A model generated the notes under the pieces. That model saw only the letters and a program-made list of their open reading frames with translations, ran no database searches and was not told where the DNA came from. This document shows positions 1,927 to 61,257 of a DNA stretch of 64,000 nucleotides, piece after piece (position 1 is the stretch's first letter; every line of letters begins with the position of its first letter). Where the stretch lies: positions 44,511 through 108,510 of the forward strand of contig JAZDLN010000011.1 in NCBI GenBank assembly GCA_043801965.1, in the 5' to 3' direction. The position numbers and the translations under genes were made by a program. This DNA comes from Candidatus Falkowbacteria bacterium (GTDB taxonomy: Bacteria; Patescibacteriota; Patescibacteriia; Patescibacteriales; UBA12075).

Positions 1927-2084
1927 GGGGCGGAAGCCCCACAACATCATTATACTCGTTTTTCGAGCGAAACATGCTGAATGTTTACATTCATGCTTTT
2001 TCTGCTTCTGTGTCTTGCTCAAAATGGTTCAAATCTCTGAACACACAAAATTCTGACGGCTCTGCGGGAGCCGCCATAATTTTG

Positions 2085-2158
2085 TGCGCCCAGATGGACT
2101 TGAACCATCGACCCCAGGCTTATAAGGCCTGTGCTCTAACCAACTGAGCTATGGGCGC
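2085..2158 (-). tRNA. tRNA-Ile (anticodon UAU)
   Basis: Reverse complement GCGCCCATAGCTCAGTTGGTTAGAGCACAGGCCTTATAAGCCTGGGGTCGATGGTTCAAGTCCATCTGGGCGCA. Stems are perfect and the anticodon loop is CTTATAA. Confidence 0.85.
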
Positions 2159-16265: not shown

Positions 16266-16322
16266 GGTATTTAGCGATAAAATACGACCGCTAAATACTA
16301 AATACAAAATACTAAATACTTA
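16266..16322. repeat. AT-rich hairpin followed by tandem degenerate 7-mers (TAAATAC type)
   Basis: gtatttagcg...cgctaaatac then taaatac aaaatac taaatac. Confidence 0.6.
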
Positions 16323-16331
16323 ATTTAAATA

Positions 16332-18061: not shown

Positions 18062-18206
18062 AAAGAAAAACAAGATACAAGTTACAAGTTACAAGTTACA
18101 AACAAATTTCAACTCTCAATATACAATAACCAAACTGATATTATACTTGTGATTTGTAATTTGAAATTTGTTTGTGTCCTTGTGTCTTGTCTCTTGTTTC
18201 TTACAG
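18062..18206. repeat. long imperfect palindrome whose arms are tandem degenerate 7-mers (CAAGTTA / TTGTnnC)
   Basis: Left arm caagata caagtta caagtta caagtta caaacaa atttcaa. Right arm ttgaaat ttgtttg tgtcctt gtgtctt gtctctt. Core caaacaaatttcaa / ttgaaatttgtttg is perfectly complementary. Confidence 0.75.
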
Positions 18207-20117: not shown

Positions 20118-20217
20118 CAAGCCCTCTGCCCCGGCTTACTTCGTTCGCCGACCCCTCTCCGGTACCGGAGAGGGGTGCCGAGCGCAAGCGAGGCGGGGAG
20201 AGGGTTTGTTTAGAAAA
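20118..20217. repeat. GC-rich ~100-nt palindromic element, copy 1 (GGAGAGGGG family)
   Basis: aagccctctgccccggcttacttcgttcgccgacccctctccggtaccggagaggggtgccgagcgcaagcgaggcggggagagggttt. Self-complementary about the ggtacc centre. Confidence 0.8.
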
Positions 20218-20222
20218 TAAAT

Positions 20223-20585
20223 TTATCTATCCATTTCTCTTCTTATTTTCCCTATTACCGCCTGAAGGTCATCTATAACTTCGGCATTGGTAAACCTCAT
20301 AATTCTATATCCCTGCCCGATAAAAAATTCTTGCCTAAATTCATCATACTCCTTGATTTCCTCTTTATTATGTATTCCTCCGTCAACCTCAATAATCAAT
20401 CTTTTGGAAAAACAACAAAAATCAACGATATACCGATAAGAGCCGAAACAAAACGGAACCTGTCGTTTGAATTTTACGTCTAAAAAATTATTTCTAACCC
20501 TTTGCCACAGTAATTTTTCCGCTGGTGTCATTTTCTTTCGTAAAATTTTTGCGATATCGTATATGTTGGTCGGATATTTATTCAT
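20223..20585 (-). CDS. DUF559 (Vsr/restriction-endonuclease-like fold) protein
   Basis: LRKKMTPAEKLLWQRVRN...FKRQVPFGSYRYIVDFCC...LIIEVDGGIH...D..R...F...GYRIMRFTNAEV, a typical DUF559 pattern. Confidence 0.8.
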   Translation of the reverse strand: MNKYPTNIYDIAKILRKKMTPAEKLLWQRVRNNFLDVKFKRQVPFCFGSYRYIVDFCCFSKRLIIEVDGGIHNKEEIKEYDEFRQEFFIGQGYRIMRFTNAEVIDDLQAVIGKIRREMDR

Positions 20586-20632: not shown

Positions 20633-20732
20633 GAGCCCTCTCCCCCGGCTCTCTTCGTTCGCCGACCCCTCTCCCTGCCTACCGGTAGGCAGGCGGTACC
20701 GGAGAGGGGTGCCGAGCGCAAGCGAGGCGGGG
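20633..20732. repeat. GC-rich palindromic element, copy 2 (same orientation as copy 1, carries a nested insertion)
   Basis: Matches copy 1 arm for arm except for 20 extra nt at the apex. Confidence 0.8.
20675..20694. repeat. 20-nt mini-palindrome nested in the apex of copy 2
   Basis: ctgcctaccggtaggcag(gc). An 18-nt perfect palindrome inserted between ctcc and ggtacc, relative to copy 1. Confidence 0.75.
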
Positions 20733-20769
20733 AGAGGGTTTTGTTTAACCGGAGAGGGGGCAAGCGTCT

Positions 20770-22593: not shown

Positions 22594-22676
22594 ATTTGTT
22601 GAAGTTATCCGCCCAAGGCATATTCGCCTTGGGCGGGGAGTAAAAAATAAAAAAATATAAGTTTGCCGCTGCGGGC

Positions 22677-28482: not shown

Positions 28483-28598
28483 TTCTGGCGGCGACCTACT
28501 TTTCCAGGGTTAAAACCCAAGTATCATCGGCGCTGGAAGGCTTAACTTCTGAGTTCGGGATGGGATCAGGTGTGACCCTTCCGCTAGAACCACCAGAA
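28483..28598 (-). rRNA. rrf: 5S ribosomal RNA
   Basis: Reverse complement contains CCTGATCCCATCCCGAACTCAGAAGTTAAGCC. The terminal helix is extended by ccattgttctgg / ccagaacaatgg. Confidence 0.9.
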
Positions 28599-28634
28599 CA
28601 ATGGCGTTTTTTTCGTAATTAAAACCAAAAATGT

Positions 28635-31702
<3,068 letters not shown>

Positions 31703-31867: not shown

Positions 31868-31975
31868 AGCTGGCAATTAACTACTAATAAAATTAGTTGT
31901 TAATTGTTAACTGTCAATTGTCCCGGCCAAAGGCCGATCCCTGCCTACCGGCAGGCAGGCGCCTTTGGCGGAAAA
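31868..31975. repeat. AT-rich CAATTAA-type palindrome followed by nested GC mini-hairpins
   Basis: ggcaattaactactaataaaattagttgttaattgttaactgtcaattg, then ggccaaaggcc...ctgcctaccggcaggcagg...gcctttggcgg. Confidence 0.6.
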
Positions 31976-32788: not shown

Positions 32789-35122
32789 ATGAAAAAGGGT
32801 TTTTGGTTTTCGTGCCTGTGCGTTATGATCCTCGGTTTAGCTTGTCCGGCCTGGTCCGGACAGAAAATTGTGGCCTTGGATGGCGAAGCCGGAGATAATT
32901 TTGGCAGTGGCGTGTCATTTTCGGGAGATTATGCCGTTATTGGCGCTAAAAACGGAGATAACAATAATAATGTATCCGCCGGAGCGGTCTATGTATATAA
33001 AAAAACGGCCAACGGCTGGGAGAGTCAACAAAAGATCTCTCTGGATGAGGGAGAAATCGGCGACAATTTCGGCAGCAGCGTCGCTATTGACGGTGATTAT
33101 ATTGTTATCGGAGCGTGGGGAGAAGATACCGGAACCGGCGCCGCCTATATCTTTATGCGGAGCGGCGAAACCTGGAGCCAACAGGCGAAACTTACCGCGG
33201 GCGACGATAGCGCGACTTGGCGTTATTTCGGGTGGAGCGTGGCAATAGAAGGAGACCGCGTTATTATATCCGTTAATTTAGACGACGACATGGGTATTAA
33301 TTCCGGATCGGCATATGTGTTTAAACGCAGCGGTACGACCTGGTCCCCGGAAGGAAGTAAATTGTTGGCTGAAGACGGCTTAGCCGGTGATTGTTTCGGT
33401 CGCCAGGTGTCGATATCCGGAAATTACGTGATCATCGGTGCCGATCTCGACGACTTTAGCGGTAAATATAACGCCGGATCGGCCTATATTTTTAAATGGA
33501 ACGGAGAAGATTGGGAGCAGACGGCAAAACTGACCGCCGAAGGCTACGCGACGACTAATGATTATTTCGGATGGAGCGTGGCGATCGACGGCGATTATGC
33601 CATAGTCGGGTCGTACGAGGACGATCTTTCGGGTAAAGCCAACGCCGGTTCGGCATATGTATTTAAACGTAATGAAAATCAGGAGACCTGGTCCCCGCAG
33701 GCGAGGCTGACCGCGAGCGACGCCGCGGCCGGCGATAATTTCGGCTGGAGCGTTACTACGAATGGTGAATACGCGATTATCGGTACCTATGGCGACGACG
33801 ACAAGGGGGATCACTCCGGTTCGGCCTATGTATTTAAACGGAGCGGTACCAGCTGGTATCAAAAAGAAAAAATAGTGCCCATAGATGGCGGGGTTTACAA
33901 TTGTTTCGGCTACAGCGTGGATATTTCCGACACCAATTTCATCGTAGGCGCCTTTAATGATGATGACAAAGGGTATGGTTCCGGTTCGGCTTATACCTTC
34001 CCCTACCAGATCCCCACGGACCTTGGCGGCGCCGCGCTTACCGGCCTGGCTTTCTATAATGTGGGCGAAACCGACAAGATCCGCTTTAACCTGACCGCAG
34101 AAACCTCAGTCGCCTTCCTCTCCGCCGGCAACCTCGACCTTAAGGGACGGGTGCTGGATGTGTACGGTAATCCGGTATATGACTGCAACAATGATGAGTG
34201 GAGCAATGGTTATACCGATATCGGCGAGTGTACGTGCGCAAATTCTGGCTACAGCTCCGAAGAAACGCGTCAGGGTAACACGCAAACGAATTTCATGTAC
34301 CGCAAACAGAATTTGGCTGCCGGAACTTATACGCTTGAAGTTACACCGGAAGACGAAGAAACACTAATTACGATAGGCGACCCTCCGGCTCCGCGTGTGT
34401 ATTCAATTGTGTTCTTGAAACGCCCCAGCGACTCCGATACCTTCTTCGAAGGTGCGGACGCTTTAGTTAGCGATAACGACACCGGCAACGATTATCTCGA
34501 CATCTACGTTAAAGCGCTTTATCCGGAATTCTACGATGATGTTGATGAATTAATACCGCCCGATTATGGATACACGGACGACTATGCGGAAGTAAACTTT
34601 TGCACCGACGAAGTGTGCGCGGAAAGGCAGTGCAAGGCCTTTACTAAATTTTACCTCAAAGTAATTCTGGAGAAACAATCACCAACCATGCGTAGTAATG
34701 GCGCTATTAATACCGCCTGGTCGACATTTGATGACTCTGATAATAATTGCGTTGCCGACTGGGATTATATACTTGAAGAAGAAGAAAGCGCTCTGATCTA
34801 TCACAGCCAAAATCTTGGCCTATTCGGTCCCGGTGCTTGCGCATCCCCTCCGGATCCAGTTGAAGATTATTTTTACAACCCCGATACGGAAACCATGGTG
34901 CGCGACAATGATGCCGACCCGTTGAATTTTTTCCAAAGAGGCGATATCTTCGTCCAAAACCATCCTGACACCAATCCCGATCCCGAAATAGACACGAGTT
35001 TCCAGCATTACGGGATAATTTATGAGGGCACAACTGTCTTTGATACCAACTATTCAGAAGACGGTATGCTTAAAAAAGCTGCGAGGAACAAAAATGAATG
35101 GAAGGTAGTTAGACCGGAATAA
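32789..35122 (+). CDS. secreted FG-GAP (integrin-alpha-like) beta-propeller repeat protein with C-terminal extension
   Basis: Signal peptide MKKGFWFSCLCVMILGLACPAWSG. At least 7 repeats of GDNFG(W)SV.I.GDY.IIGA....G.AY(V/I)F. RBS gaggag. Confidence 0.8.
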   Translation: MKKGFWFSCLCVMILGLACPAWSGQKIVALDGEAGDNFGSGVSFSGDYAVIGAKNGDNNNNVSAGAVYVYKKTANGWESQQKISLDEGEIGDNFGSSVAIDGDYIVIGAWGEDTGTGAAYIFMRSGETWSQQAKLTAGDDSATWRYFGWSVAIEGDRVIISVNLDDDMGINSGSAYVFKRSGTTWSPEGSKLLAEDGLAGDCFGRQVSISGNYVIIGADLDDFSGKYNAGSAYIFKWNGEDWEQTAKLTAEGYATTNDYFGWSVAIDGDYAIVGSYEDDLSGKANAGSAYVFKRNENQETWSPQARLTASDAAAGDNFGWSVTTNGEYAIIGTYGDDDKGDHSGSAYVFKRSGTSWYQKEKIVPIDGGVYNCFGYSVDISDTNFIVGAFNDDDKGYGSGSAYTFPYQIPTDLGGAALTGLAFYNVGETDKIRFNLTAETSVAFLSAGNLDLKGRVLDVYGNPVYDCNNDEWSNGYTDIGECTCANSGYSSEETRQGNTQTNFMYRKQNLAAGTYTLEVTPEDEETLITIGDPPAPRVYSIVFLKRPSDSDTFFEGADALVSDNDTGNDYLDIYVKALYPEFYDDVDELIPPDYGYTDDYAEVNFCTDEVCAERQCKAFTKFYLKVILEKQSPTMRSNGAINTAWSTFDDSDNNCVADWDYILEEEESALIYHSQNLGLFGPGACASPPDPVEDYFYNPDTETMVRDNDADPLNFFQRGDIFVQNHPDTNPDPEIDTSFQHYGIIYEGTTVFDTNYSEDGMLKKAARNKNEWKVVRPE

Positions 35123-36224: not shown

Positions 36225-36315
36225 TACCCTCTCCCCCGGCTCGCTGCGTTCGCCGACCCCTCTCCGGTACCGGAGAGGGGAGCCGAAGCGAAAGCGGGGG
36301 CAGGGAGAGGGTTTG
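36225..36315. repeat. GC-rich palindromic element, copy 3 (solo)
   Basis: ataccctctcccccggctcgctgcgttcgccgacccctctccggtaccggagaggggagccgaagcgaaagcgggggcagggagagggtttgt. Confidence 0.8.
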
Positions 36316-43115: not shown

Positions 43116-44312
43116 TCAATAAATGAACATCGCGTCGCCGTAACTATAGAAACGGTATAAAGACTTTACGGCATGAGCATAGGCTCTGTCAATGTTGTCT
43201 TTGCCCGCGAAAGCCGAAACCAGCATTAAAAGAGTCGATTTCGGCAGATGAAAATTCGTGATCATGACATCGACGATCTTGAACTCGTAGCCGGGATAAA
43301 TAAATATGTCTACGTTTTTTTGAAAACCCTTAAATTGTTTTTCGTATTGAGTGTTTTGAAATTGATTATTGATTGGATATTGGATATTGGATATTGGATA
43401 TTCGGAAACCATAGCCTCAAGCGTGCGGGTCGAAGTGGTGCCTACGGTAATAATGCGTCGTCCCTGATGCTTCGCTAAATAAACGTTAGCCATGGTTTCG
43501 GCCGATACCTCGACCCATTCCGCATGCATTTTGTGATCAGTGATGATTTCCGCTTTGACCGGCGCGAAGGTGCCCAGACCCACGTGCAGCGTGACATATT
43601 CTATTTGTACGCCCTTCGCTTTTATCTTCTCCATCAATTCCGGCGTGAAATGCAGTCCGGCGGTCGGCGCCGCCACCGATCCGGTCTTATTTTTATCCGC
43701 GTAAATTGTTTGATACGATTTCTCGTCATTAATCAATTCGTTACGCGTTACGCGTTTTGCGTTACGCGAAATGTACGGTGGCAGCGGCGTCTGCCCGATT
43801 TTCTCCACGATCTTCATCATCTCCTCGCCCGCCTTATTGAATTCAACGGTAAAAGTACCGTCGCCGTTATTTTTTATTGCCAGCGCCTTAAGGCCGCCGT
43901 CAAATTCCACTTCTAAACCCTCTTTGCGCCGATGTCCCCCAACCAGGCAAATCCAGCGATCTCCCCTCGCCCGCGGCGAAGCCGGGGGAGAGGGGTCGGG
44001 GGTGAGGGCATGCACCAGAAAAACCTCAACACGCCCGCCCGTACCCTTCCGCTCCCCGATCAAGCGCGCTGGAAAAACTTTGGAATTATTCAAAACCAAA
44101 ACATCGCCGGTTCGCAAATAACCGACGATATCATAAAAATACTTGTCTTCAATTCCAGGCGCTCCCACCCCCTCTGTATCTCCCCCTCCGGCAGGGGGAG
44201 AAAAACGGCGTAATACCAAAAGCCGCGAGTGGTCCCGCGGTTCTACCGGCTCCTGAGCGATAAGCTCTTTGGGCAAATTGTAATCAAAATCGCTTAACTT
44301 CACATAACGCAT
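43116..44312 (-). CDS. queA: S-adenosylmethionine:tRNA ribosyltransferase-isomerase, carrying four in-frame repeat-derived insertions
   Basis: LSDFDYNLPKELIAQEP, PLPPYI, VAAPTAGLHFT, VTLHVGLGTF, ITVGTTS and NFHLPKSTLLMLVSAF...FYSYGDAMFI motifs. 398 aa versus the ~350 typical. Confidence 0.9.
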   Translation of the reverse strand: MRYVKLSDFDYNLPKELIAQEPVEPRDHSRLLVLRRFSPPAGGGDTEGVGAPGIEDKYFYDIVGYLRTGDVLVLNNSKVFPARLIGERKGTGGRVEVFLVHALTPDPSPPASPRARGDRWICLVGGHRRKEGLEVEFDGGLKALAIKNNGDGTFTVEFNKAGEEMMKIVEKIGQTPLPPYISRNAKRVTRNELINDEKSYQTIYADKNKTGSVAAPTAGLHFTPELMEKIKAKGVQIEYVTLHVGLGTFAPVKAEIITDHKMHAEWVEVSAETMANVYLAKHQGRRIITVGTTSTRTLEAMVSEYPISNIQYPINNQFQNTQYEKQFKGFQKNVDIFIYPGYEFKIVDVMITNFHLPKSTLLMLVSAFAGKDNIDRAYAHAVKSLYRFYSYGDAMFIY

Positions 44313-44370
44313 AGCGCATAACGCATAACGCTCTTTGTGCGTTACGCGTTATGCGTTCCACGTTACGCGT
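44303..44370. repeat. palindrome of TAACGCA / TGCGTTA 7-mers spanning the stop of one gene and the start of queA
   Basis: cataacgc atagcgca taacgca taacgc - tctttg - tgcgtta cgcgtta tgcgttc cacgtta cgcgt. Confidence 0.7.
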
Positions 44371-44935
44371 TCTCGGCCCGGTTCTTCTGCACCAGCTTGA
44401 TTATTATGTCCCGGATGTGGTCCGGATTCGGCACCTGGCGGAAACTGAAGCGCTCTTCCGCGGTACCGGCCGTCTGCACGTGCACGTCGCCGAATTTTAA
44501 TACCGTCGGGATAAAACCGTGCGTCTCGCTCGTCACGTCCTGGATGCGGAAAAGCTTGTGCTCGGCCACCACCCGCGAAAAAAAACCTCGCTGATCGATA
44601 TAGATTATCCGGCGGTTCGTTATTATCCACGAATCGAGATAATAATCAACGAAAGAAAAAAAGAAAAAAAGCCAAACAAAAAGATAGTAAGCGCTTGTCC
44701 CAAGGGTAATCAGGGGAAGGGAAACGGTACCGGCTAATACGGTGGCGTCATTATTTATCATCAGATAAAAAAACCCGACTGGCAGAACTAAAAGGACGGC
44801 GAATATAACGACGCGCTTGAAAATTATAAAAATATCGCGCCTGACGACACGGACGATCGATTCGTCTGGAAGTTTGTTGGGAAGATAATTAAGGGATAAC
44901 ATTTTAAACAATAAAATACTAAAGGTTAAAAACAA
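44363..44935 (-). CDS. membrane protein with bacterial PH (bPH_2, YdbS/YdbT-like) domain
   Basis: Two TM helices, then WIITNRRIIYIDQRGFFSRVVAEHKLFRIQDV...KFGDVHVQTAG. Confidence 0.65.
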   Translation of the reverse strand: MFLTFSILLFKMLSLNYLPNKLPDESIVRVVRRDIFIIFKRVVIFAVLLVLPVGFFYLMINNDATVLAGTVSLPLITLGTSAYYLFVWLFFFFSFVDYYLDSWIITNRRIIYIDQRGFFSRVVAEHKLFRIQDVTSETHGFIPTVLKFGDVHVQTAGTAEERFSFRQVPNPDHIRDIIIKLVQKNRAENA

Positions 44936-45345: not shown

Positions 45346-45374
45346 ACGATGCGTAACGATTCATTAAAAATTTT

Positions 45375-45512
45375 TAATTATCAATTTTCAATTTACAGTG
45401 AATTTCCAATTTTTTAATTTTTCAAATACCGGCTTATCGGCTTATGGCAATAAATAATTTAAATTGAAAATTTGATCATTGATTGAAAATTGTAAATTGA
45501 AAATTGTAAATT
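45375..45512. repeat. palindrome with arms of degenerate 7-mers (AATTTNC / GAAAATT)
   Basis: aattatc aattttc aatttac ... gaaaatt gtaaatt gaaaatt gtaaatt. The centre carries ccggcttatcggcttatgg. Confidence 0.75.
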
Positions 45513-47997: not shown

Positions 47998-48092
47998 ACA
48001 AAATGTAAAATGATAATGAAAAATTTATAATTAAAACGTTGCGGTATTTTGCATTTTAAACTGTCATTTTACATTTTGAGATTTGCATTTTT
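47998..48092. repeat. palindrome with arms of AAAATGN / ATTTTNC 7-mers
   Basis: caaaatg taaaatg ataatga ... attttgc attttaa actgtc attttac attttga gatttgc. Confidence 0.65.
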
Positions 48093-57289: not shown

Positions 57290-57422
57290 TTAATTTTCAA
57301 TTATCAATGACCAATTTTCAATTTTCGTGTTTTTCGCTCAATTACATAGTTATGCCGGATAGTAAATCGTTAAAAATTATTAATTTAAAAATTGATTGAA
57401 AATTGTTAAATTGATAATTTGG
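57290..57422. repeat. 7-mer-armed AT-rich palindrome between the two hydrogenase genes
   Basis: aattttc aattatc aatgacc aattttc aattttc ... aaaaatt gattgaa aattgtt aaattga taattt. Confidence 0.7.
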
Positions 57423-59616: not shown

Positions 59617-61257
59617 CTAAAAATGCAAGTTTTTAACCATGTACGTCTCTTTCAGCCGATATCCTAGTTTCCGGTAATAACCGCGCACCCCCACTCCGGC
59701 GATGACCGCCATCTTGCCGTACCCGGCCGCGCGCGCGATCTTTTCGGCTTCGGCCATTAATTTTTTCCCCAATCCGGCATGCTGGATTTTCTTGCCTTTC
59801 CCGACCGGCACCAGCTCACCGTAAACATGAAGCTCCCGCACTAACGCTGAATCATTAATACTATCATATGTTTCGTGTTTCATGTTCTGCGAAGACAGAC
59901 GCAGGCGGCAAAAACCGAGCAGATTATTTCTATCGTCTTTATTTTTTGATATAGCCTGTATAAAACACTCTTGTCCGCCCGAGGCTTCATATTTTATAAT
60001 TTCCAATTTCGGATTTCTAATTTCTAATTTCCCGCCTTTTATTTCACGGCATCGAATACAGTCGCATTTCACCCCCCGTTGTTGCATTACCTGTCGTAAA
60101 TTAGTAGTCAGGTTTCCGGCCACGATCGATTCCCCCGGAATATCCCGGATCAGGCGGATGATGCGCACGTATGACGGAACGATATTTTTGCATTTTATAA
60201 TCAATTCGCGCAAAACTTTGTCGGAATAAGGTTTGTATTTCCCTTGTTTCCACCAGCGGTATAATAAACTCCCCCTGGTAACTACGGTCGGATAGAATTT
60301 TATCTGATCCGGCTGGAAACGTCCGTCGTTGAATAATCGTTTGAACATACGAATGTCCCCGGCGGGAGTGGAGCCCGGCAAACCGGGCATAACGTGATAA
60401 GTGACTTTAAAGCCGAAATCTTTAAGAAGCGCGGTCGCCCGGGCGATCGCCCCTACGCCATGTCCGCGTTTATTAAGCTTAAGTATCTTATCGTCAATGG
60501 CTTGTACTCCCATCTCAACGCGGGTGCATCCCAATTCCCGCATCTCCCGGAGTTCTTTCTCGTCTATATAGTCCGGGCGCGTTTCCAGAGTAATCCCGAT
60601 TATCCTGTACTTGGCGTCTTCATTCTTTATCTGCTCCTTTTTTAGAGCATCTTTTAGTTTATCGATATTTTCGTTACGCGTTTTTCGTTTTGCGTTTTGT
60701 GCTTCATGCTTAATGTTTCCTGTTTCATGGAATTCATTCGCTCCCCGGAAGCATTCTTTGATATACCAGTATTTATATTTTTCCGGCAAGACCGACCAAG
60801 TGCCTCCGATCACGATCAATTCGATCTTGGTCGGTTCATGGCCGTTGGCGACAAGCGCTTTAAGCCGGTCGCGGACCTGAACGTACGGATCGTAGCGGCA
60901 GCGGATCGCCCGCATTACGGCCGGTTCGTTCGATAAATAGCTTTGAGGAACGTTTTTTTCGGTTGGGCAATACGCGCATTTGCCGGGGCATTCGTAAGGC
61001 TCCGTTAAAACCGCCACCGGCGCGATTCCTGATAAAGTCCTTATAGATCGTTTTCGCAACAGTCGCCGAACCTCCGGAAGCGGCTTTAGGCTTAGACTAT
61101 TTAACGCTTTAAGTATCGAAGAATTTTCCAAAATCCCGATATGGTGTTTTTTCGCTAATTTTCTTTTAATCAGCATAAGCTCGTTGCCGTCCTTAATATC
61201 CGAAGACAGGAGCTCTTCAACCGCTTTTAATTCCGTTTTATTTAATTTCATCGTCAT
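59617..61257 (-). CDS. Elp3-like radical SAM + GNAT acetyltransferase
   Basis: Radical SAM CPGKCAYCP cluster motif, TRVEMGVQ, and a C-terminal GNAT QHAGLGKKLMAEAEKIA. 546 aa. Confidence 0.85.
   Translation of the reverse strand: MTMKLNKTELKAVEELLSSDIKDGNELMLIKRKLAKKHHIGILENSSILKALNSLSLKPLPEVRRLLRKRSIRTLSGIAPVAVLTEPYECPGKCAYCPTEKNVPQSYLSNEPAVMRAIRCRYDPYVQVRDRLKALVANGHEPTKIELIVIGGTWSVLPEKYKYWYIKECFRGANEFHETGNIKHEAQNAKRKTRNENIDKLKDALKKEQIKNEDAKYRIIGITLETRPDYIDEKELREMRELGCTRVEMGVQAIDDKILKLNKRGHGVGAIARATALLKDFGFKVTYHVMPGLPGSTPAGDIRMFKRLFNDGRFQPDQIKFYPTVVTRGSLLYRWWKQGKYKPYSDKVLRELIIKCKNIVPSYVRIIRLIRDIPGESIVAGNLTTNLRQVMQQRGVKCDCIRCREIKGGKLEIRNPKLEIIKYEASGGQECFIQAISKNKDDRNNLLGFCRLRLSSQNMKHETYDSINDSALVRELHVYGELVPVGKGKKIQHAGLGKKLMAEAEKIARAAGYGKMAVIAGVGVRGYYRKLGYRLKETYMVKNLHF

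Follow-up and report, generated by a model that had tools for sequence, protein, structure and literature searches.

The tRNA-modification gene queA of a Candidatus Falkowbacteria genome, studied here in a window of 64,000 nucleotides (the whole stretch of DNA that was analysed), carries repeat DNA in frame at four positions of an otherwise conserved coding sequence. The same four positions are insertion hot spots in the queA genes of relatives from the candidate phyla radiation (CPR), where their content differs from lineage to lineage and is exchanged even between near-identical alleles. The explanation considered probable, by a modest measure, is that structured repeat DNA with a fast turnover enters the gene and survives only where it stays in frame, is free of stop codons and is tolerated by the protein fold.

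The four inserted segments of QueA

The queA open reading frame (ORF) lies on the minus strand at 43116..44312 and encodes 398 amino acids, in which an earlier note on this DNA had recognised four inserted segments falling between conserved blocks. Both claims are borne out by a HMMER alignment of this full-length QueA to the enzymes of T. maritima (1VKY) and B. subtilis (1YY3), which shows gaps at precisely those four segments. Counted as residues between conserved anchors, the loops of the window protein measure 21 residues at site 1, 20 at site 2, 18 at site 3 and 36 at site 4, against 5-8, 7-9, 9-16 (mostly 9) and 16-23 (baseline about 17), respectively, in six reference QueAs from outside the CPR. 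Together the four sites add about 50 residues, making the enzyme about 15% longer, and on these alignments all four segments are confirmed as in-frame insertions relative to non-CPR QueA.

Site 1 (44154..44204, minus strand) holds an insert of about 13 amino acids (SPPAGGGDTEGVGAPG) whose DNA includes the GC hairpin that had been noticed earlier; its perfect 9-bp stem at 44179-44201 reads tctccccct-ccggc-agggggaga on the plus strand and, as RNA, has a computed folding energy of -26.8 kcal/mol (z -3.5). The insert at site 2 (43953..44012, minus strand; about 12 amino acids, LTPDPSPPASPRARGDR) is GC-rich, and its hairpin potential is weak (fold z -1.6). Site 3 (43737..43773, minus strand) adds about 6-9 amino acids (RNAKRVTRNE) through a heptamer array, which at 43739-43768 has period 7, 4.3 copies of the unit GCGTAAC and 82% matches; the corresponding pattern was found 7 times against 0.6 expected. 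The second unit of this array is CAAAACG instead of CGTAACG, so that the in-frame TAA of a perfect GCGTAAC array is gone, as selection for an open reading frame would produce. At site 4 (43353..43405, minus strand; about 19 amino acids, EYPISNIQYPINNQFQN) a heptamer array is accompanied by degenerate 7-mers; the array itself, (ATATCCA)4.4 at 43372-43402, has period 7 and 100% matches, with 4 matches to its pattern against 0.05 expected. Taken by themselves, sites 3 and 4 are unstructured (fold z -0.6 and +0.9). The presence of arrays at these two sites had been stated correctly, and only the counts of five and seven 7-mers need revision, to about 4.3 copies at site 3 and to a core of four perfect units with degenerate flanking units at site 4. 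One stretch of the window protein that spans an insert junction reads ...SEYPISNIQYPINNQFQNTQYEK.

Integrity of the gene

The National Center for Biotechnology Information (NCBI) holds an identical protein of 395 amino acids from a Candidatus Falkowbacteria metagenome-assembled genome, which places the annotated queA start at the GTG at 44303; the extra three N-terminal codons of the 398-residue ORF (ATG CGT TAT) sit within a heptamer array. The match to PF02547 covers profile positions 1-322 of 322 (E 3.5e-125), 1VKY and 1YY3 match the protein at E about 1e-86, and all of the 49 invariant columns in an alignment of 126 QueA sequences, including the six non-CPR references, are kept (49/49). 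The full-length profile match, the invariant residues and the two-domain fold agree in assigning the protein to the QueA family, and the gene order RuvB, bPH_2, QueA, NusB, RNase III, T2SSE ATPase recurs in independent assemblies of relatives. To judge from these comparisons, the window gene is no pseudogene, and its product appears intact and is probably active.

These observations bear on the proposal that the segments are never translated, being bypassed by the ribosome or removed at the RNA level, or that queA is a pseudogene here or arose as an artefact of assembly. A precedent exists in yeast mitochondrial genes, where GC-rich palindromic inserts are bypassed by the ribosome. Nevertheless, the proposal is extremely improbable here, given the intact gene with its conserved residues, the synteny from RuvB to RNase III seen in independent assemblies, the specific mutation of the stop-creating unit at site 3, and the fact that the inserts of every ortholog examined are stop-free and have lengths divisible by three.

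The same four loops in relatives

Length variation in the 120 closest homologs, which are 53-70% identical overall, 339-453 amino acids long and, where named, mostly from the CPR, concentrates at the same four sites. Site 1 exceeds its 8-residue baseline in 36 of the 120 and site 2 differs from its 8-residue baseline in 80, while site 3 spans 11-37 residues and site 4 spans 11-66. The alignment of orthologs that the earlier note had suggested as a check upholds the segments as insertions relative to non-CPR QueA, but it also reveals these positions as variable in many close homologs; the inserts are not four colonisations limited to this copy of the gene.

DNA was fetched for twelve orthologs and for one more from a metagenome scan; the inserts of nine orthologs were codon-aligned and four further alleles were compared in two DNA alignments, with mostly non-CPR QueA loci from genome and metagenome contigs used as controls only. 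In the nine orthologs, nearly all filled sites contain a perfect heptamer array or a perfect or near-perfect palindrome, and the insert sequence at a given site differs from lineage to lineage. Palindromes occupy site 1 in P0018, P0035 and P0082 (stems of 24, 22 and 30 bp, respectively) and site 2 in P0002 and P0005 (GTAGAGACG...CGTCTCTAC). At site 3 there are arrays of AGAATCA in P0005 and of GACGACA in P0018, and palindromes in P0007, P0008 and L085. Site 4 carries ATTTCCA arrays in P0002, P0004 and P0007, with ATTTCCA x4 followed by ATATCCA x4 in P0002, arrays of ATTTTCA in P0005, AAAATCG in P0008 and AAATCTG in L001, and palindromes in L085, P0103 and P0104.

The extent of the phenomenon was also estimated by a protein-level scan for 7-residue peptides that can be translated from three perfect heptamer copies, which are rare by chance because only 11,256 of them exist. 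Peptides requiring at least three perfect heptamers are present in 45/120 CPR-type QueAs versus 4/156 non-CPR-type ORFs, and only 1 of those 4 matches is a real array; in the 120 homologs these peptides fall 36 times at site 4, 11 times at site 3, once at site 2 and never at site 1. Perfect hairpins whose stem reaches 10 bp or more are present in 9/14 CPR-type queA genes versus 6/156 others, and the density of period-7 arrays is 13.4 per 100 kb in CPR loci versus 0.85 in other loci. In the non-CPR-type QueA of L086, which is 48% identical, a (CCCTATA)4.7 array lies in frame at site 4 and a second CCCTATA array lies about 2 kb upstream (coordinates 832-861 and 2794-2826), so the phenomenon is not strictly confined to the close CPR set. 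For other families containing the AATTTCC array, a search with the peptide (NFQFPIS)6 was uninformative, nothing but short ORFs without annotation being recovered, some of them cyanobacterial; (AATTTCC)4 gave a single match in 2.9 million viral contigs, and this array is thus not phage-borne.

All 120 homologs are in frame, a result of direct relevance to the idea that the in-frame heptamer arrays are phase-variation switches, in which the gain or loss of one unit would shift the frame and turn QueA off. A 7-nt unit is indeed not a multiple of three, two tRNA-modification genes of the window carry heptamer arrays, and heptanucleotide repeats feature in papers on phase-variable loci, for example neuO and HMW1A. 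The queA arrays resemble neuO in having a 7-nt unit within an ORF, where a change in unit number shifts the frame. Contingency loci typically have many repeat units and documented length variation, and neuO is switched by frameshifts at repeats located within its coding sequence. The queA arrays, in contrast, have only about 4 units, so that slippage should be rare, no variants in copy number were seen in the sequences, for which read-level data were lacking, and intergenic arrays are equally long, so that the reading frame is not what sets the length; together with the uniformly open frames of the homologs, this makes a switching function very improbable.

Turnover between near-identical alleles

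Homologs that have hardly diverged outside the four sites have wholly different content within them. The cores of P0035 and P0082 are 97% identical, with a stretch of about 700 nt in which the DNA is the same throughout (100%), but site 1 holds a perfect palindrome of 44 nt in one allele and an unrelated one of 73 nt in the other, and at site 2 they have 24 versus 144 nt. In the second pair, a 51-nt palindrome at site 3 (RCRTPY...RVSDT) is present in P0104 and not in P0103. The window protein itself is 86% identical to its closest relative, P0002, outside the inserts, and sites 1-3 of the two are unrelated. Both DNA alignments (P0035/P0082 and P0103/P0104) are mosaics of identical and diverged blocks, and the shuffling of alleles by homologous recombination probably contributes. 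At the junctions in these two pairs no target-site duplications are readable, whole loops being swapped between conserved flanks.

A fifth variable position was seen in P0103 (L170, alignment A5 columns 466-489), where a 24-nt hairpin-containing insert (SPSASSGQ) lies in another loop of the beta-barrel domain; it is absent from the near-identical P0104.

Position of the inserts in the predicted structure

An AlphaFold2 model of window QueA, built from the 120-sequence alignment, has a mean predicted local distance difference test score (pLDDT) of 80 and a predicted template modelling score (pTM) of 0.78; its matches to 1VKY and 1YY3 have E 1e-30 to 1e-31 and TM-scores of 0.66-0.71 (normalised to the target) and 0.51-0.55 (to the query). 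In this model all four sites are loop or turn positions between secondary-structure elements. Site 1 lies between strands E30-35 and E53-58, with a mean pLDDT of 47 in the 10-residue block 41-50; site 2 occupies the turn that links E94-102 to E119-125 in a beta-hairpin; site 3 comes after the PLPPYI motif, where confidence is generally low; and site 4 connects helix H292-304 with strand E330-334. Given their location in loops and the confidence of the model, it is plausible that the inserts are tolerated as surface loops.

Loops of this kind might also be adaptive at the protein level, for instance in CPR-specific contacts with tRNA or with a partner protein, the repeat DNA serving as raw material. 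The recurrence of a FPISNFQFPNK/KQF-type peptide at site 4 in many homologs is consistent with such a role, and for the palindromic inserts of Rickettsia proteins it has been argued that fold and function can accommodate them (PMC10969869). However, the sequence, length and even presence of the inserts differ among close relatives, confidence in the modelled insert at site 1 is low, and synonymous positions are conserved, which selection on the peptide does not require. Moreover, one unit family is used in both orientations at site 4, yielding the unrelated peptides FPISNFQ and WKLEIGN, which argues that it is the DNA, rather than the peptide, that carries the identity. Adaptation of the loops is accordingly regarded as quite improbable.

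The hairpin at the queA start

A further repeat structure lies at the beginning of the gene. At 44303..44371 (minus strand), a hairpin was recognised from sequence and folding whose arms, at 44303-44331 and 44339-44371, are inverted copies of one another made of heptamer arrays (GCGTAAC-type versus GTTATGC-type), with a computed fold of -43.3 kcal/mol (z -5.4). Within it lie both candidate start codons of queA and the stop codon of bPH_2, the gene upstream, and its unit is the same as that of site 3. Inverted-array hairpins at the queA start with the GCRTAAC unit and the position of the window copy are also found in L168 (519-575) and L169 (129-185). An Rfam scan matched no family at or near queA. 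In L085 and L166, inverted repeat-array hairpins likewise lie directly upstream of the queA start or overlap it, the units in L166 being 9 nt long.

Origin of the inserts and the evidence against a neutral one

From these observations we infer that the inserts are translated, tolerated and neutral, and how they are generated. Two kinds of structured simple DNA appear to be common in the genome, arrays of 7-nt units of roughly 30 nt and GC-rich hairpins or palindromes. Arrays and perfect palindromes would arise through replication slippage or template switching, genome-specific palindromic elements would add DNA by spreading or by gene conversion, and homologous recombination would shuffle the insert alleles between strains. 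The four positions would then be recurrent hot spots of insertion, deletion and replacement in CPR-type queA genes, and selection would retain those versions that are stop-free, a multiple of three in length and located where the fold accepts extra residues. Survival only in tolerated, in-frame positions would explain why insertions return repeatedly to the same permissive loops. The segments would be translated as extra, mostly unstructured loop residues and would be passengers rather than adaptations.

Several observations weigh against this account. The (ATTTCCA)4 array at site 4 is identical in 8-9/9 codons among P0002, P0004 and P0007, while synonymous-codon identity among them elsewhere in queA is 0.42-0.50, and neutral passengers should have decayed. 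The GCRTAAC hairpin at the queA start has kept its unit and its position in a lineage that is 63% identical at the protein level. Array length is almost always 27-35 nt, both in coding and in intergenic DNA, which is not expected from plain slippage. Essentially the same palindrome that P0104 carries at site 3 is found at that site in the distant P0007 and is absent from P0103, the close relative of P0104. No target-site duplications or transposase genes document mobility, although no search was made for the tyrosine transposases associated with repetitive extragenic palindromic sequences (RAYT). The translation of the inserts is itself predicted from the sequence. The DNA-level conservation of some arrays is thus left unaccounted for, and a low but real chance attaches to a functional cis-element or a dedicated generating mechanism as the source of these poorly fitting observations.

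The first of these alternatives holds that the inserts are functional nucleic-acid elements placed in a coding sequence and selected at the DNA or RNA level, with the peptide as a by-product; they could be sites for a heptad-reading protein or structures that set mRNA stability, translation initiation or pausing. It draws on the identity, codon by codon, of (ATTTCCA)4 in lineages that are saturated at their other synonymous sites, on the uniform array length of about 30 nt, and on the strong hairpin that would sequester the queA starts and whose unit and location are conserved in L168 and L169. The 5' arm of this hairpin recurs at site 3, which could therefore compete for the 3' arm, intergenic arrays pair in inverted orientation between co-directional genes, and TAACTGA and G-rich heptamer repeats have been proposed as regulatory sites in other bacteria (PMC4679880, PMC4692102). 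On the other hand, units vary by lineage at one and the same site, many lineages hold a palindrome or nothing there, inserts are present or absent between near-identical alleles, sites 3 and 4 have no structure of their own, no Rfam family was matched, and no candidate binding protein was identified. A function of this kind is consequently considered unlikely, though worth keeping in view.

A broader proposition, on the whole doubtful, is that the heptamer arrays of ~30 nt and the perfect palindromes of CPR genomes are written or maintained by an active process specific for structure, or as a class of cis-elements under selection. The recurrent sites would include loops of conserved enzymes and gene starts, the arrays may be read by a heptad-reading factor, and a dedicated mechanism still at work, not generic slippage, would be what replaces inserts between near-identical alleles.

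Relation to other repeats in the window

Repeats were compared within the 64-kb window of the genome. Site 2 shares two strings with a dispersed palindromic element, as had been claimed earlier: AGCCGGGGGAGAGGG matches it over 15/15 nt (E 0.004) and GGGAGAGGGGTCGG over 14/14 nt (E 0.014), and the two overlap as one 21-mer in queA whereas they form separate arms in the element. The string GGGGAGAGGGG, allowing up to one mismatch, occurs 7 times in the window against 0.7 expected. Judged by these matches, the kinship of site 2 with the element seems real but short. The element is GC-rich and ~90 nt long; two copies, at 20122-20207 and 20636-20741, bracket a DUF559 ORF (20223-20585, minus strand, Pfam E 1e-31), and a solo third copy lies at 36227..36312, 15.5 kb away from the DUF559 pair. 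DUF559 has a Vsr-like nuclease fold, and with its bracketing palindromes the ORF looks like a small mobile unit from which solo palindromes have been derived.

The window has other, intergenic arrays of the kind present at sites 3 and 4. Site 3 matches the array at 44339-44371 and an array at 60670-60696 (89% over 27 nt) in a second tRNA-modification gene, an Elp3-like radical-SAM/GNAT gene at 59617-61257 (minus strand). The latter has in-frame heptamer arrays at 59868-59886, 59998-60032 and 60678-60729 (minus strand), and its residues 175-204 are an insertion relative to the Elp3 of D. mccartyi (5L7J). The site 4 unit ATATCCA has no other occurrence in the window, while the similar units AATTTTC and AATTTCC form intergenic arrays and one array in the Elp3-like gene. 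For the hairpin of site 1 there is no relative in the 64-kb window, the best outside match being 14 nt long and not a hairpin. The derivation of all inserts from two intergenic repeat classes, proposed in the earlier note, accordingly holds in part: sites 3 and 4 share their kind of array and site 2 shares strings with the palindromic element, but site 1 stands apart and the exact unit of site 4 is, within the window, confined to queA.

Across the window, perfect arrays of at least 2.5 copies number 5 at period 7, versus 0 in shuffled sequence, and 0 at periods 6 and 8-12. At least 12 different heptamer units are present, which is not the pattern of a few fixed units per genome. Sites 3 and 4, with at least three tandem 7-nt copies and a period-7 excess, have the hallmarks of heptameric simple sequence repeats (SSRs). 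Long intergenic hairpins whose arms are inverted 7-nt arrays, each with a locus-specific unit, lie at 16270-16324, 18070-18202, 45369-45512, 48000-48078 and 57290-57421, and such hairpins mostly separate co-directional genes. Two other hairpins were considered as inserts and rejected: one in a Fic gene encodes ordinary sequence, and one at glmS (22609-22636, a perfect 11-bp GC stem) belongs to the 5' leader, because the true start MCGIVG lies downstream.

Comparison with known repeat systems

The earlier note had described the inserts as a colonisation like that by Rickettsia palindromic elements (RPE). As far as they are described in the summary of Ogata et al. 2000 given in PMC10969869, RPEs are ~150-bp elements that fall into defined families and have a conserved encoded peptide. 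The likeness, which is one of spirit and concerns the palindromic half of the inserts, is sound in several respects: hairpin-capable repeat DNA lies in frame in unrelated housekeeping genes, its presence varies among orthologs, and the insert positions, which are loops of a conserved enzyme here, are argued to be tolerated by the protein fold. It fails for the elements themselves, since the size of about 100-150 bp and the conserved encoded peptide are both lacking; the queA pieces are 18-57 nt long (6-19 amino acids), and their peptides differ between orthologs. Only site 2 matches a dispersed element, over a length of 14-15 nt; tandem heptamers rather than palindromes make up half of the four segments; and, unlike RPEs, the queA inserts return to the same four loops throughout a whole radiation, though with differing sequences. 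The heptamer arrays in particular cannot be counted as an RPE-like element, their units being locus-specific, without an element-like consensus, and their behaviour being that of simple sequence such as the short tandemly repeated repetitive (STRR) sequences.

Heptameric SSRs are known from several bacteria, among them the STRR sequences of cyanobacteria, the units GGGAATC and GGGGA(T/C)T of Xanthomonas and Nostoc (PMC4692102), and the TAACTGA repeats of Beggiatoaceae, of which a few cases lie in ORFs (PMC4679880). CspB has been reported to bind one heptamer per protein, and the published repeats have fixed units and are reported to be under-represented within coding sequence (PMC4679880, PMC4692102). 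The arrays of the window share with them the 7-nt tandem units, a mostly intergenic location near gene ends and an occasional inversion, and with the G-rich repeats a strong bias to about four units; G-quadruplexes, the rationale offered for four units, cannot explain this here, as the units of the window are mostly not G-rich. They differ in that the unit changes by locus and that arrays lie in frame in conserved enzymes, at conserved positions.

Short genome-specific palindromes, such as the one shared by P0002 and P0005 at site 2, are also reminiscent of repetitive extragenic palindromic (REP) sequences and bacterial interspersed mosaic elements (BIME), or of miniature inverted-repeat transposable elements (MITE). 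REP sequences have a GTAG head, are mobilised by RAYT transposases and are extragenic by definition. The window palindromes, in contrast, do not have the GTAG head.

Novelty and significance

Although in-frame repeat insertion and heptameric SSRs are each already known, what appears to be new is that the two occur together, with rapid turnover of alleles, at hot spots that lineages of the CPR share in a conserved enzyme; the literature, whose coverage was incomplete, yielded no account of heptamer arrays or perfect palindromes lying in frame in genes of the CPR. CPR bacteria have small genomes, and their proteins are short on average (PMC9297842). Repeat DNA translated within a conserved enzyme would lengthen QueA against this trend, and the same loops are refilled by new perfect repeats within less than 3% protein divergence. 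The variable loops may serve as a natural map of fold positions that tolerate insertions and as a clear case of non-coding repeat dynamics creating protein sequence. Consequently, short "lineage-specific insertions" in alignments of CPR proteins may be repeat DNA and not adaptations. If the conservation of some arrays does reflect function, an unrecognised class of cis-elements would exist in a large and poorly understood branch of the bacteria.

Other features of the window

Some further features were recorded away from queA. In the stretch 28483-31701 (minus strand), the 23S rRNA gene has 3068 nt against the 2925 nt of the model and probably contains an insertion; a 5S rRNA gene is adjacent, and a heptamer array (31893-31921) and a GC hairpin are situated just upstream. 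A tRNA-Ile gene with the anticodon TAT (UAU) is located at 2084-2158 (minus strand). Just downstream of a tRNA-Arg gene there is a 78-nt direct repeat (48787-48864/48905-48982, 94% identical) with the GC hairpin GAAGTCCCGACGCTTCGGGACGC. Finally, the ORF at 32789-35122 (777 amino acids) has repeats with a 171-nt period at 32976-33840, indicating a repeat-domain protein.

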